A stretch of 64,000 nucleotides of DNA from assembly GCF_055900595.2 (NCBI RefSeq), contig NZ_CM148325.1, one strand, 5' to 3'. Both the position numbers and the translations under genes were made by a program. The notes below the pieces were generated by a model that saw nothing but the letters and a program-made list of their open reading frames with translations, was not told the origin of the DNA and did not search any database. Below are positions 27,360 through 47,889 of this stretch, in pieces (positions within the stretch are counted from its first letter, which is position 1; each line of letters opens with the position of its first letter).

Positions 27360-27914
27360 ATGACCCTACGTAAGATTCTGGCACTCACCTGCCTGCTGTT
27401 GCCGATGATGGCTTCCGCACATCAGTTTGAAACCGGTCAACGAGTGCCACCGATAGGCATTACCGATCGGGGCGAGTTAGTGCTTGATAAAGATCAGTTT
27501 AGCTACAAAACCTGGAACAGCGCGCAGTTAGTGGGAAAAGTGCGAGTACTGCAACATATTGCTGGTCGCACCTCTGCAAAAGAGAAAAACGCGACGCTGA
27601 TTGAAGCGATTAAATCAGCAAAGTTACCGCACGATCGTTACCAGACCACCACCATTGTGAACACCGACGACGCGATTCCGGGTTCTGGCATGTTTGTGCG
27701 CAGCAGTCTGGAGAGTAATAAAAAGCTTTATCCCTGGTCGCAGTTTATTGTCGATAGCAATGGCATCGCGCGCGGTGCCTGGCAGCTAGATGAAGAAAGT
27801 TCCGCTGTAGCGGTGCTGGACAAAGACGGTCGAGTGCAATGGGCCAAAGACGGTGCGCTCACTCAGGAAGAGGTGCAGCAAGTGATGAACCTGCTGCAAA
27901 AGTTGCTCAAATAA
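27360..27914 (+). CDS. ytfJ: Periplasmic protein YtfJ
   Basis: 184-aa ORF with a signal peptide; conserved neighbour of ytfK. Confidence 0.85.
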   Translation: MTLRKILALTCLLLPMMASAHQFETGQRVPPIGITDRGELVLDKDQFSYKTWNSAQLVGKVRVLQHIAGRTSAKEKNATLIEAIKSAKLPHDRYQTTTIVNTDDAIPGSGMFVRSSLESNKKLYPWSQFIVDSNGIARGAWQLDEESSAVAVLDKDGRVQWAKDGALTQEEVQQVMNLLQKLLK

Positions 27915-27945
27915 TGTTAATAACATAAATTCTGGAAAAATAAAT

Positions 27946-27976
27946 TTCCCCTATCGATATATATGGGATAGGGGAA
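27946..27976. terminator. Hairpin between the convergent ytfJ and ytfI-like genes
   Basis: TCCCCTATC ... GATAGGGGA inverted repeat; weak T-run. Confidence 0.4.
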
Positions 27977-28014
27977 TTAAGTCTCTGAGTTTTTACGCCG
28001 AACTCATACTAGTA

Positions 28015-28938
28015 TCAATAACCCTTATTCGCGTTTAACGGTTTTACCTCTTTTTTAAACGCTTCAATGGTAGATTTATATTTCTCGGAAATCTTTTCTT
28101 CGGTATAATTACCGTTTGCGGCCAGATTTGCACTTATAATCGCTTCCACTTGCTCGGTTATTTCCACTTGTTGGTAACCTGCATTAACCAGAAAATTATA
28201 AATAAGAGAGTAATCTTCACCCTGCAAAAAAATATAAGAGCCAGTTCGAAATTCCTCATCCCCTCCATAGATTTTAAGAGCAAAGCCCAAAGATTCTATG
28301 ACCATGGCATAATTTCCATTATTTATTTTCTCGCAAAAATACCATCCTTCACATTCTTTAATGCTACCTCCTGGCCCTTCAAGTTCAAATTTACCCCGTT
28401 TTAATTTGCTTACTACATTCTCAAAATAAGCAGAACCGTAAGACAAGCCACCCGCCGCCGTCCGAAAATAACCGTTAATCCTTTCAGGTATGTCAGACTG
28501 TTTTTTCTGCAAAATATCATAGGCATACAATCTTCTATTTTGTGCTAGTGGAAATTCACGGTTCTTAAAGTCTATAAATGAGTTATACTCATTTATTGTT
28601 ATAGAGATTTCTTCGTATTCAAATCCATTGCCTCGCAATGTCATTGTATATTCGGCACCGTTATCTTTAAGGCGGAAGCTGATAAGAAAATTATCCATGG
28701 CGTGAACGGTTTCATCTTTTGATGAAAGCACCTGATAACTATTTTTATCGATCTGTGTTGCTCTAAGAAAGAACTCCCTTAAAATTAACAGACTATCATA
28801 ATTCGAAATCCAATCCCTTTTCTTAAATGCATGCTGAATATTATTAAAGAAATTATTTGAATGTATTTTTGTATGCGATGACTTTACAAATAACTCCACT
28901 GCACCAAAAAAATTATTGTGTCTGATCTTGGGTAACAT
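28015..28938 (-). CDS. ytfI: Uncharacterized protein, AT-rich gene (YtfI-like by position)
   Basis: 307-aa ORF in a markedly AT-rich stretch with Asn/Lys/Tyr/Phe-rich composition; position between cysQ and ytfJ matches K-12 ytfI; no domain recognised. Confidence 0.6.
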   Translation of the reverse strand: MLPKIRHNNFFGAVELFVKSSHTKIHSNNFFNNIQHAFKKRDWISNYDSLLILREFFLRATQIDKNSYQVLSSKDETVHAMDNFLISFRLKDNGAEYTMTLRGNGFEYEEISITINEYNSFIDFKNREFPLAQNRRLYAYDILQKKQSDIPERINGYFRTAAGGLSYGSAYFENVVSKLKRGKFELEGPGGSIKECEGWYFCEKINNGNYAMVIESLGFALKIYGGDEEFRTGSYIFLQGEDYSLIYNFLVNAGYQQVEITEQVEAIISANLAANGNYTEEKISEKYKSTIEAFKKEVKPLNANKGY

Positions 28939-29150
28939 ATGACAACCTTATTATATTTGGTTATTCTATGTCGCCATTAAATATCTTGTTAAAGAAGTAA
29001 ACTATCAAAAAACGCTCATTATTAAAATATAACTTATTAGCGTTAGAATATTTACACTTTAAATACAATCCCTTTATATCTATAACTTTTTAGGTTGGAA
29101 ACAAATCAGGATGGCAGAATCAGGAAATACACTGTTTCTGCCATCTGTAT

Positions 29151-29891
29151 TTAATAAATAGAGACTCTGAACCCAGGATTCAGGAACGACTCGCGCGGGG
29201 TATAATCCAGCGGTTTACCCTGCCAGTCGTGAACGTGCGCTCCGGCCGCTGCCGCAACTGCGTGACCGGCAGCGGTATCCCAAATATTAGTTGGCCCGAA
29301 ACGCGGATAGAGTTGAGCCTGCCCTTCCGCCACCAGGCAGAATTTCAGCGAAGAGCCGATAGACGTGGTTTGATGTTCGCCAAGCTGTTGCAGATACTCT
29401 TTCAGCTCCGCATCCGCATGGGAACGGCTGATCACCACCAGCGGCGGGCGCGCATCGCGGACCTGAATCTGCTTGCGTACACCGCACTCTTCTTTCCAGG
29501 CTTTGCCGTCTGCCGCGCTGTACATTACGTTCATTACCGGCGCATACACCACACCTAAAATCGGTTTGCCGTGGTCGATGAGCGCAATATTAACGGTGAA
29601 TTCACCATTACGTTTAATAAACTCTTTAGTACCATCCAGCGGGTCTACCAGCCAGTAACGCTGCCAGTGTTGACGGACTTCCCAACCGGGAGGATCTTCT
29701 TCAGAAAGGACCGGAATATCCGGTGTCAGCGTACGTAAACCGTCCATGATAACGGTGTGTGCGGCAATATCCGCTGCCGTTACCGGAGAATTGTCCGCTT
29801 TGCTGACGACGTCCATCGGTTTCGTCCCGTCGTAGACCTGCATAATGGCATCGCCTGCATTCCGTGCAAGCTGGCATACTTGATCTAACAT
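29151..29891 (-). CDS. cysQ: 3'(2'),5'-bisphosphate nucleotidase
   Basis: 246-aa inositol monophosphatase-family ORF with the WLVDPLDGT motif. Confidence 0.9.
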
Positions 29892-47094: not shown

Positions 47095-47889
47095 ATGACA
47101 TTACCAACAACTATTTATTCATTCCCCGCATATTTACCTCGTTTTTCGTCCACCGACAAACCAGCAAAACTAAAATTTCATCAATACGCACGCGCTACAT
47201 TACTGTCAAATCGTGGAAGAGATCATAATTGCGATGGCAGACGTACTGTTGAGATCCACAAACTAGATCTCTCAGACTGGCAAGCATTCAATAAGCTAGC
47301 GACGAGGTGTAATACTTACGATGGAATAACAATGAATGGTGATAATTCTTTTGGATGGAACCATGAAGCTACATTAGATAATATTCACGCCCAGAAATAC
47401 AATAAAGCTTACGCGGGTGCGCGGTTAACCGCAGAACTGAAATATTTATTGCAAGATGTCGAATCCTTCGAACCCAACAGTAAATACACAATACACGAAG
47501 TGGTTTTGGGACCTGGTTATGGTACTCCAGACTATACCGGCCAAACGATAGGATACGTTGTAACCCTTCCTGCCCAAATGCCTAATTGCTGGTCATCTGA
47601 ACTACCAACAATCGATCTTTATATCGACCAACTTCGCACTGTTACAGGCGTTTCTAATGCCCTCGGATTCATCATTGCTGCATTGCTAAACGCGTATTCT
47701 GATTTACCCCATGATTTGAAAATTGGTCTACGTTCCTTATCAAATTCAGCCGCAATCTACTCGGGTTTAGGTTTCGAGCGAGTGCCGCAGGACCGAGACA
47801 TAAGGAGTGATCGTATGCATCTAACGCCAGCAAACCATCCTGACTTATGGACACAAGAGAATGGTGAATGGATCTACTTGCGAAATTAA
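47095..47889 (+). CDS. yjfZ: Uncharacterized protein YjfZ
   Basis: 264-aa ORF in an AT-rich context; length and position next to rplI match K-12 yjfZ as I recall it. Confidence 0.65.
   Translation: MTLPTTIYSFPAYLPRFSSTDKPAKLKFHQYARATLLSNRGRDHNCDGRRTVEIHKLDLSDWQAFNKLATRCNTYDGITMNGDNSFGWNHEATLDNIHAQKYNKAYAGARLTAELKYLLQDVESFEPNSKYTIHEVVLGPGYGTPDYTGQTIGYVVTLPAQMPNCWSSELPTIDLYIDQLRTVTGVSNALGFIIAALLNAYSDLPHDLKIGLRSLSNSAAIYSGLGFERVPQDRDIRSDRMHLTPANHPDLWTQENGEWIYLRN

Follow-up and report, generated by a model that had tools for sequence, protein, structure and literature searches.

The closest described counterpart of the locus analyzed here is ytfI of Escherichia coli K-12 (b4215; WP_000937655.1, "protein YtfI"), which lies between ytfJ and cysQ. 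The gene is catalogued and functionally uncharacterised; the literature contains mentions of ytfI, none addressing function, and a search under "b4215" returned nothing relevant. In the study of strain-specific segments bound by H-NS by Higashi et al. 2016 (PMC4720273), ytfI serves as the illustrated nucleating insert: in K-12 it is bound by H-NS in ChAP-seq data, with spreading to cpdB, cysQ, ytfJ, and ytfK (S10 Fig), and H-NS reaches these neighboring genes only in strains that have ytfI. The same study reports that H-NS-bound genes show raised dN. A further point of comparison is offered by the integrase-less islets found at core-genome junctions ("hot spots") in Enterobacteriaceae, with which the present locus shares a one-gene cargo between convergent core genes, the lack of a mobility gene, and a junction that carries unrelated cargo in other genera. 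Unlike those islets, it shows no visible mechanism of insertion, the sole possible footprint being an imperfect repeat of ~10 nt.

Identity and composition of the ytfI islet

The 64,000-nt stretch of DNA that was analyzed (the window) contains an AT-rich insert with a single long gene.

27915..29150, no strand: ytfI islet, an AT-rich insert of 1236 bp separating the stop codons of convergent ytfJ and cysQ
28015..28938, minus strand: ytfI allele, 307 aa by ORF call, 79% amino acid identity to K-12 YtfI

The initial annotation had called this ORF ytfI-like, and a BLASTP comparison with K-12 YtfI (235 of 297 residues identical, E = 5e-179), together with the shared locus, establishes that it is an allele of K-12 ytfI. 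The window gene is surrounded by msrA, paeA, ytfK, ytfJ, cysQ, and cpdB. The two alleles share the islet junctions, both hairpins described below, the upstream spacer, and an equally low GC content, and they are 79% identical in protein and 85% in DNA over the full length. They differ in that the window protein has 307 rather than 312 residues, with a divergent C-terminal tail caused by an indel of 23–24 nt near the stop codon; in numerous substitutions across residues 150–240; in a better σ70-like match upstream of the window gene; and in the RefSeq label, which for the window allele is only "hypothetical protein" (WP_001355103.1/P0001, 95–96% identical to the window protein). The window allele also comes from a small, divergent E. 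coli lineage: the allele type was found in 20 genomes, and the lineage, as judged by mpl-fbp, numbers 17 genomes at 99% identity or more, the rest lying at ~97%; the two sizes agree. E. coli EC42405 is 100% identical to the window over mpl-fbp.

The gene and both of its flanks had been described from the sequence as visibly richer in AT than cysQ and ytfJ, and calculation confirms this. The GC content of the islet is 0.336 versus 0.511 for the window, the lowest among all 1236-bp segments (z = −4.5); by part, it is 0.351 in the ORF, 0.32 in the left spacer, and 0.278 in the right spacer, as compared with 0.51 in ytfJ and 0.543 in cysQ. The GC3 of the ORF is 0.32 against 0.58 ± 0.066 in 39 long ORFs (z = −3.95), and its local codon-adaptation index is 0.583 against 0.692 ± 0.052 (z = −2.1). 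Composition and codon usage are thus clearly distinct from those of the flanks, and no homology to a housekeeping family was detected. The described enrichment of the protein in Asn, Lys, Tyr, and Phe is likewise real, at about twice the usual content: these residues make up 8.8, 7.8, 6.5, and 7.5% of YtfI versus 3.9, 4.5, 2.8, and 4.0% in 38 other ORFs, and the combined Phe, Tyr, Asn, Lys, and Ile fraction has a z-score of 4.7. As computed from its sequence, YtfI is a soluble protein of 35.4 kDa with a pI of 6.3 and no hydrophobic segment.

The stop-free run at ytfI extends over 310 codons, whereas the longest in 2000 dinucleotide shuffles is 171 (analytic P ~5e-12); ytfI is a real coding gene, and a chance ORF is excluded. 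It alone is kept between alleles, no conserved second ORF being present in the islet; neither an antisense ORF of 84 aa nor the short ORFs of the upstream spacer are conserved. No transposase or integrase ORF was found in the islet in the ORF list or with NCBIfam and Pfam, no terminal inverted repeats occur at its ends, and an Rfam scan of the islet returned no RNA family.

Hairpins and spacer at the islet ends

The ORF had been described as bracketed by hairpins and AT-rich spacers, and a hairpin is indeed present at each end of the islet.

27899..27914, plus strand: 3′ end of ytfJ, which in islet-bearing strains reads ...LLQKLLK* (184 aa)
27946..27976, minus strand: left hairpin, a perfect 10-bp stem (27946–27955/27967–27976) with an 11-nt loop
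28939..29100, minus strand: AT-rich spacer upstream of ytfI; the entire 212-bp spacer has 27.8% GC
28946–28949, minus strand: AAGG Shine–Dalgarno sequence of ytfI, by reading of the sequence
28992–28987 and 28968–28963, minus strand: σ70-like match upstream of ytfI, TTAACA and TAGAAT separated by an 18-nt spacer, 10 of 12 positions
29103..29152, minus strand: right hairpin, a 21-nt imperfect inverted repeat (29103–29123/29132–29152) directly past the cysQ stop codon

Because AAAUUUAUUUUU follows the left hairpin on the minus strand, this element is likely the intrinsic terminator of ytfI, and it possibly terminates ytfJ as well, i.e., acts bidirectionally. Its 11-nt loop exceeds the limit of a simple terminator scan, which therefore missed it. 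The folding energy is −20.6 kcal/mol in a 90-nt context (z = −2.25 versus shuffles), more modest than that of the right hairpin (−21.3 kcal/mol, z = −4.86, with none of 200 shuffles folding equally well). The right hairpin is likely the cysQ terminator in islet-bearing strains; it is 92–96% identical among E. coli alleles and 84% identical in the L005 allele, and it is carried by the islet and missing from empty sites. Both hairpins are kept in every one of the seven alleles examined.

Promoter and terminator scans of the region did no better than chance. σ70-like matches are no commoner there than expected by chance, and the −35 element of the match upstream of ytfI is not conserved in K-12. 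The upstream spacer as a whole is more conserved than the gene (89–90% identity to K-12 versus 83% for the coding sequence).

An old insertion at the junction of ytfJ and cysQ

The islet is polymorphic in E. coli, being present in ~30% of complete genomes and absent from ~70%. About 3,760 of 5,420 matching genomes lie within the range of identity shown by empty-site matches, and all 27 half-coverage matches examined span exactly 1288 bp. In empty sites, ytfJ ends ...LLHKLINK* (185 aa) and overlaps cysQ by 11 nt, as seen by comparison of the junctions and in the annotation of E. coli HS. The gap between the two genes is at most ~70 nt in 74 of 80 species-representative loci of Enterobacteriaceae. 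Since the tails of the two genes meet or overlap in noncarriers and in nearly all the other Enterobacteriaceae sampled, the ancestral gene order lacked the islet, which is thus an insertion. The description of the gene as embedded in the core genome needs correction in that ytfI is itself no core gene but is subject to presence/absence polymorphism. The junctions are identical in seven alleles, which have both hairpins and the spacer in common, and the islet has a single origin. A candidate target-site duplication consists of imperfect copies of ~10 nt, TCAAATAATG on the left and TTAATAAATAG on the right, whose counterpart in empty sites is the one stop region where the two genes overlap; they are AT-rich and of low complexity, and their resemblance may be due to chance.

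The same junction has received other inserts. In E. albertii it carries a 385-aa pentapeptide-repeat protein, unrelated to ytfI, in an insert of 33% GC; in Citrobacter youngae, a radical-SAM-like protein and a Cys/Gly-rich membrane protein; and in Kluyvera, a 291-aa ORF whose sequence suggests a putative serine hydrolase. An IS1 insertion at the ytfJ–cysQ junction was found in E. coli as well.

The islet is not a recent arrival. In three pairwise comparisons, dS in ytfI and in the flanks is 0.36 versus 0.15–0.23 (window and K-12), 0.69 versus 0.56–0.66 (K-12 and a lineage ~10% diverged), and 0.07 versus 0.04–0.07 (a further pair). This codivergence is only approximate, because ytfI dS is 1.6–2.4 times the flank dS in the window–K-12 pair. 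As dS in ytfI roughly tracks that of the flanks out to the ~10% diverged lineage, recent horizontal acquisition was rejected. The islet nevertheless has 32–35% GC in every allele; AT-richness is here no mark of recent acquisition. No donor could be identified, with no homologue in the other taxa, phages, plasmids, and viral contigs searched. Four other sampled Escherichia lineages have empty sites, three of them ~10% diverged and one, MOD1-EC7003, much closer to E. coli. It is therefore conceivable that the islet was exchanged laterally, long ago, together with its flanks.

Selection on ytfI

Between divergent alleles the dN/dS of ytfI is 0.21–0.43 (0.36 versus K-12), and it falls to 0.06–0.3 in codons 1–140; the ORF spans 303–312 aa in alleles that are 70–95% identical. 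The gene is thus under weak purifying selection. Its dN is nonetheless 0.13 as compared with 0.002–0.012 in the flanks, so that the window allele shares the elevated dN that Higashi et al. describe for genes bound by H-NS. The N-terminal half of the protein is conserved, the most conserved segment being residues 123–151 (DFKNREFPLxQNRRLYAxDILQKKQSDIP), whereas residues ~141–240 change fast. In codons 141–200, dN and dS are both raised and dN/dS is ~1, a pattern that suggests intragenic recombination between old alleles; positive selection in this stretch was not accepted, with dN/dS only ~1 and dS raised there too. Decay of the gene takes the form of an IS1 deletion, a frameshift, and a cluster of 729 sequences truncated to 251 aa. 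As 70% of E. coli do without ytfI and it is broken in some carriers, the gene is dispensable.

Relatives and predicted structure of YtfI

YtfI is an orphan of Escherichia and Shigella. A word-indexed search of 5.8e9 protein clusters returned only Escherichia/Shigella proteins of at least 66% identity, an exhaustive search of 1.84e9 representatives with a profile HMM recovered YtfI and fragments of it but nothing else, and among ~15 billion proteins no homologue outside these genera was found. The absence of a recognizable motif, noted at the outset, extends to profile searches: Pfam gave no match with the single sequence or with each member of a six-allele alignment, NCBIfam gave none, and a sequence-profile search of the PDB returned nothing (best match nitrogenase, E 0.8). 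There was no match in phage genomes by tblastn or in viral contigs, and four "plasmid" matches to ytfI proved to be E. coli records that were either mislabelled chromosomes (4.9 Mb) or of 655 kb. In PHROGs, a family of unknown function (phrog_3250) was matched by three of four alleles at E 0.002–0.004, which is weak and uninformative.

AlphaFold2 models were unusable both for full-length YtfI (pLDDT 44.6) and for residues 168–300 (pLDDT 48.7); a mixed α/β fold is predicted. A Foldseek search of the PDB with the poor model gave nothing at E ≤ 0.001. PUR-α repeats, the top matches, were rejected (E ≥ 0.2, probability ≤ 0.14, TM 0.1–0.2), and given these weak scores and a query model with pLDDT 44.6 they carry no weight.

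Across 5027 PADLOC models (PADLOC-DB v2), the only defense-system match was to a fragment of Cas6b (PDLC02103), in which YtfI residues 112–152 align with positions 84–124 of the 240-position profile at E 3e-4 to 6e-3 in five of five alleles. The match was discounted as evidence: it spans just 41 residues, within the most conserved segment, or 17% of the profile, other Cas6 models are unsupportive, and YtfI has no Pfam or NCBIfam Cas6 match. Its recurrence in all alleles is not independent evidence, because it falls in the most conserved segment, and the fragment is probably a chance or composition-driven match. No cas genes occur among the ytfI neighbors and no CRISPR-like repeat at 27800–29300 of the window.

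H-NS and the function of YtfI

Sites resembling the H-NS motif number 4.9 per kb in the islet against 1.3 per kb in the window, an excess that follows trivially from its AT-richness. The occupancy data of Higashi et al. pertain to the K-12 allele. What our comparison adds to that study is that the insert is old, of single origin, and located at a junction where inserts have arrived in other genera too.

On balance we favor, as the probable explanation, an old single-insertion AT-rich module whose gene is silenced by H-NS and encodes a conditional accessory factor. The 1.24-kb islet was inserted once, long ago, exactly at the ancestral overlap of convergent ytfJ and cysQ. As a self-contained module it would consist of a terminator hairpin, ytfI, an AT-rich spacer with the promoter, and a terminator that replaces that of cysQ; the window carries the form of the allele seen in a small, divergent E. 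coli lineage. The immediate and measurable effect would be in cis: ytfJ and cysQ each gain a new 3′ end and terminator, and the islet offers a patch for H-NS nucleation. H-NS would keep ytfI largely silent in ordinary growth, and YtfI would act only once silencing is lifted, as a nonessential factor conditional on niche or stress.

An alternative account, in which YtfI has no present function and a near-neutral, H-NS-silenced islet acts only in cis, through its terminators and an H-NS patch that damps the neighbors, seems to us unlikely. It would explain the high dN relative to the flanks, the pseudogenes and deletions in several lineages (a ytfI mutation is also listed in the laboratory strain JM83), the absence from 70% of E. 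coli, the greater conservation of the noncoding parts of the islet than of the coding sequence, and the spread of H-NS to the neighbors only where ytfI is present (PMC4720273). Amino acid changes are, however, still being removed, as indicated by dN/dS values of 0.2–0.4 at dS up to 0.8 and of 0.06–0.3 in codons 1–140, and an ORF of 303–312 codons has been kept open in DNA of 34% GC, where stops arise easily. Rather doubtful, in our view, is a role as a single-gene antiphage defense or conflict protein (e.g., an orphan immunity factor), with the variable middle as a partner interface and conflict maintaining the polymorphism. The orphan, AT-rich, and variably present gene, the locally fast evolution of codons 141–200, the pentapeptide-repeat protein at the same junction in E. 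albertii, and the weak matches to phrog_3250 and, reproducibly, to the Cas6b fragment would all suit such a role. Against these stand the lack of any significant PADLOC match beyond that fragment and the silence of the Pfam and NCBIfam Cas6 models; the frequent decay of ytfI; the want of phage or viral relatives; and a dN/dS never clearly above 1, with dS also elevated in codons 141–200, as expected under recombination or relaxed constraint. The neighbors from msrA to cpdB are housekeeping genes, with no defense island or mobile genes beside ytfI.

The K/R-rich character of residues 123–151, the partial Cas6b match in all five alleles tested, the strand-strand-strand(-strand)-helix units predicted by both models, and the rank of PUR-α repeats in Foldseek would be in keeping with a binder of RNA or single-stranded DNA built on an RRM/RAMP-like or PUR/Whirly-like β-β-β-β-α repeat. 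We judge this improbable: the Foldseek scores given above derive from the model with pLDDT 44.6, no Pfam or NCBIfam match to Cas6 or PUR appears even at E ≤ 10, and YtfI, with a pI of 6.3, has no overall basic character. That YtfI is a toxin, alone or as part of a toxin–antitoxin pair, held harmless by H-NS silencing is very improbable even though the gene is solitary, AT-rich, and, in K-12, bound by H-NS. The islet has no conserved second ORF, YtfI contains no PADLOC or Pfam toxin domain, an E. coli proteome chip carried the K-12 protein (PMC3229523), and a strain with K-12 ytfI on an ASKA plasmid grows, having been selected for better growth in 3 mM NaOCl and recovered as HOCl-resistant (PMC8228696). 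That screen involved many unrelated genes, and the ytfI phenotype is not specific. The suggestion that solitary genes of this kind may be defense- or toxin-like is hence not borne out here, given a lone Cas6b fragment, housekeeping neighbors, no conserved partner ORF, and a clone that grows.

That ytfI is catalogued, and that it is foreign in character and bound by H-NS in K-12, was already known, and the present results open no long-standing question. As a bold conjecture, which we hold to be a long shot, YtfI may have founded a new family, without recognizable relatives, that arose or was captured in the Escherichia ancestor and takes part in conflict or stress, with the variable residues 141–240 as a specificity determinant and the ytfJ–cysQ overlap as a dedicated landing site for one-gene cargo of this sort throughout Enterobacteriaceae; if so, it would be, for example, a single-gene defense or immunity factor, or an RNA-binding regulator freed when H-NS silencing lifts. 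As an orphan that AlphaFold2 cannot fold, YtfI is a reasonable if small subject for work on uncharacterised genes. With regard to the locus, unrelated one-gene inserts have landed repeatedly, in several genera, where the 3′ ends of ytfJ and cysQ overlap, and strong AT-richness need not signify recent transfer, as the islet has stayed at 32–35% GC while codiverging with its flanks to a dS of ~0.7.

An AT-rich islet between ytfJ and cysQ

The initial annotation described an AT-rich, ytfI-like gene at 27915-29150, and the feature is found at those coordinates. The islet fits exactly between the stop codons of ytfJ and cysQ and, as had been noted, ytfI is bracketed by hairpins.

Features of the islet and its flanks
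27360-27914, + strand: ytfJ; its stop codon is the left edge of the islet
27946-27976: hairpin with a perfect 10-bp stem; a U-rich run follows the stem when read on the ytfI strand
28015-28938, - strand: ytfI ORF, 307 aa; the sole long ORF of the islet
29103-29152: hairpin with a 21-nt imperfect stem, directly past the cysQ stop codon; folding far stronger than that of shuffled sequence (z = -4.9)
29151-29891, - strand: cysQ; its stop codon is the right edge of the islet

Calculation sets the islet apart from its flanks. Its GC content is 0.336 versus 0.511 for the window, the lowest among all 1236-bp windows (z = -4.5); its spacers have values of 0.32 and 0.278, versus 0.51 for ytfJ and 0.54 for cysQ. 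The GC3 of ytfI is 0.32 versus 0.58 ± 0.066 for the 39 long ORFs of the window (z = -3.95), and its codon-adaptation index, built from these same ORFs, lies 2.1 sd under their mean. The noted richness of the protein in Asn, Lys, Tyr, and Phe is likewise real, each residue occurring at about twice its frequency in other window ORFs. Elsewhere in the window, a 264-aa ORF (47095-47889, +) ranks last of the 39 long ORFs in both codon adaptation (0.51) and GC3 (0.355); it lies just past an MFS transporter gene and a flavoprotein oxidoreductase-like gene, has no NCBIfam match, and may be another AT-rich orphan-like gene.

The neighboring genes msrA, paeA (ytfL), ytfK, ytfJ, cysQ, and cpdB are ordered as in E. 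coli. With 235/297 residues identical to K-12 YtfI (E = 5e-179), the ORF is an allele of K-12 ytfI, and it is under this name that the feature has been catalogued. Of 5,426 complete E. coli genomes, 20 have a near-identical copy (95-99% DNA identity), annotated in RefSeq as 'hypothetical protein'; the prevailing K-12/O157 type has 86% DNA identity to the window allele. Across mpl-fbp, 17 genomes are at least 99% identical to the window (EC42405 at 100%) and all others about 97%, and the flanks of ytfI differ by 4-5% between the window and K-12. The source of the window is a minor, divergent E. coli lineage, and the unusual 79% identity of its allele is explained by this divergence together with a fast-evolving protein. 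The cysQ-cpdB intergenic region adjoining the islet contains a full-length match to the ES239 sRNA (Rfam RF02756; 29958-30080, -; 149 bits versus a gathering score of 62).

Insertion into an ancestrally empty site

The islet is present in 1,622 of the 5,426 complete E. coli genomes. In islet-free genomes, every half-coverage row sampled has a ytfJ-to-cysQ match of exactly 1288 bp; the genes of E. coli HS overlap tail to tail by 11 nt, and YtfJ there ends in ...LLHKLINK versus ...LLQKLLK with the islet. Scanning species-representative genomes with YtfJ yielded 80 loci; at 74 of them the two genes overlap or are separated by no more than ~70 nt, as in Citrobacter, Salmonella enterica arizonae, Klebsiella, Raoultella, Enterobacter, Kosakonia, E. 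whittamii, and three further Escherichia lineages. Because of this distribution, the empty site is the ancestral state. Inspection of ORFs and repeats in the ytfI islet revealed neither a transposase or integrase gene nor terminal inverted repeats; an imperfect ~10-nt duplication at the overlapped stop region is the sole possible insertion footprint.

The YtfJ and CysQ proteins of the empty haplotype are identical in four E. coli strains from differing sources. Two empty-site genomes, E. coli '2019_APHA' (labelled O25b:H4-ST131) and an O104:H4 strain, show 0 differences over msrA, paeA, ytfJ, cysQ, and cpdB; such identity despite very different lineage labels suggests either that the empty haplotype was recently imported by recombination or that the labels are faulty. 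Within the 3' end of ytfJ lies a 10-nt inverted repeat, TGCAGCAAGT / ACCTGCTGCA (27874-27898, +), which in empty sites would fall just downstream of the cysQ stop codon and could serve there as a putative cysQ terminator. Kluyvera spacers contain CAGCAG/CTGCTG hairpins that resemble it.

An old insertion of probable single origin

An alignment of seven alleles (window, MFDS1022581, K-12, O157:H7, MDR_56, a 303-aa variant, and SCPM-O-B-8794, whose flanks are ~10% diverged) shows that the junctions, both hairpins, and an upstream spacer of recognizable conservation are common to all. The synonymous divergence of ytfI roughly follows that of the flanking genes, with dS values of 0.07 (flanks 0.04-0.07) for K-12 versus O157, 0.11 (0.06-0.11) for K-12 versus MDR_56, 0.36 (0.15-0.23; 1.6-2.4 times the flanks) for window versus K-12, and 0.69 (0.56-0.66) for K-12 versus SCPM-O-B-8794. 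The islet has therefore occupied the site since before these lineages split, and one old, single-origin event is the best-supported reading of the alignments. An old homologous-recombination exchange of the islet together with its flanks is possible; empty sites occur in four other sampled Escherichia lineages, three ~10% diverged and one, MOD1-EC7003, much nearer E. coli. Since all alleles still have 32-35% GC and the net drift from AT to GC among polarized substitutions is only slight, low GC is no mark of recency here. Of the proposed horizontal acquisition, insertion into the ancestral gene order is supported by the 74 empty loci, whereas recent transfer is contradicted by dS that roughly tracks the flanks.

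A weakly constrained gene

A stop-free run of 310 codons in 34%-GC DNA exceeds the shuffle maximum of 171 (n = 2000; P ~5e-12), and dN/dS between divergent alleles is 0.21-0.43 versus 0.02-0.08 for the flanks; ytfI is thus a real but weakly constrained gene. Constraint is strongest in codons 1-140 (dN/dS 0.06-0.35). In codons 141-200, dN/dS nears 1 in two of four pairs compared, a pattern that positive selection might produce; because dS is likewise raised there in the pair of K-12 and the protein allele P0003, intragenic recombination or relaxed constraint would fit at least as well. Between the window and K-12, the non-coding parts of the islet are 90-91% identical and the CDS 83%. Decay is common: ytfI is frameshifted in EcPF16, where cpdB is also split by IS1 (locus L094, 5697-8417), and in ETEC1738 (locus L003, 2864-4154) IS1 stands in place of ytfI and the ytfJ 3' end, an IS1-mediated deletion having spared only ~154 bp at the promoter-side end of the islet. 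A 251-aa N-truncated form has 729 member sequences, and the lab strain JM83 carries a ytfI mutation.

Homology and predicted properties of YtfI

The remote-homology and structural analyses returned no family: YtfI has no match in Pfam, NCBIfam, or PDB sequence searches, and the pLDDT of the AlphaFold2 models is 44.6 for the whole protein and 48.7 for the 168-300 segment. A search of 5.8 billion clusters retrieved solely Escherichia/Shigella proteins at least 66% identical to YtfI, a profile HMM against 1.84 billion representatives retrieved nothing beyond YtfI fragments, and no relatives occur in the phage genomes or viral contigs searched. Apparent plasmid-borne copies are mislabelled chromosomes or one 655-kb replicon. 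PUR-alpha repeats, the best Foldseek matches, carry no weight (E 0.2, TM 0.1-0.2). At 35.4 kDa, with a pI of 6.3 and no hydrophobic segment, YtfI is predicted to be soluble.

All five alleles tested give a weak, 41-residue match to PADLOC Cas6b (E 3e-4 to 6e-3), and three of four give a weak match to PHROG 3250, a family without assigned function (E ~0.002-0.004). Both fall inside the conserved 83-152 segment common to all alleles, so their repetition is not independent evidence. Identity as a Cas6 was rejected, as the match covers only 41 residues and other Cas6 models have none.

Other cargo at the junction

Inserts unrelated to the islet occupy this junction in other genomes. In Escherichia albertii NBRC 107761 (locus L010, 4550-6062) a 1.5-kb, 33%-GC insert sits exactly between ytfJ and cysQ; its 385-aa product has pentapeptide repeats (Pfam PF00805, E 3e-7) and no relation to YtfI. 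The 2.1-kb insert of Citrobacter youngae ATCC 29220 (locus L029, 4550-6681), with the ytfJ 3' end duplicated at its right edge, encodes a 350-aa radical-SAM/SPASM-like protein and a membrane protein rich in Cys and Gly, with GSSCGG repeats at its end. Two Kluyvera species (loci L064 and L067, 4550-5463) have a 0.9-kb insert with a 291-aa ORF whose sequence suggests a putative serine hydrolase, and in K. intermedia the junction is merely an 80-nt spacer with a hairpin.

H-NS binding and possible role

The initial annotation read the gene as probably H-NS-silenced; the binding part of this is published for K-12, where ytfI exemplifies a K-12-specific insert bound by H-NS (Higashi et al. 2016, PMC4720273). 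The same study reports that H-NS binding on cpdB, cysQ, ytfJ, and ytfK depends on the presence of ytfI and that dN is raised in H-NS-bound genes (PMC4720273). In an ASKA overexpression screen, ytfI was among 23 genes enabling growth in 3 mM NaOCl (PMC8228696), a non-specific result that nevertheless argues against toxicity of YtfI. Elsewhere, ytfI is mentioned for sigma-32 ChIP signals, which are disputed, and in two lists, one from a proteome chip and one of multi-stress genes; none of the literature mentioning the gene addresses its function.

The observation behind the annotation is confirmed and its interpretation upheld in part; the defence or toxin-like portion is not supported, given the short Cas6b match and the ASKA growth. 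A role of YtfI in conflict or nucleic-acid binding is only weakly hinted at. The best-supported reading is an ancient, single-origin, one-gene islet, H-NS-bound according to the K-12 data, whose product would be a dispensable, weakly constrained accessory factor restricted to Escherichia. In cis, the islet provides new 3' ends and putative terminators for ytfJ and cysQ, together with an H-NS patch.
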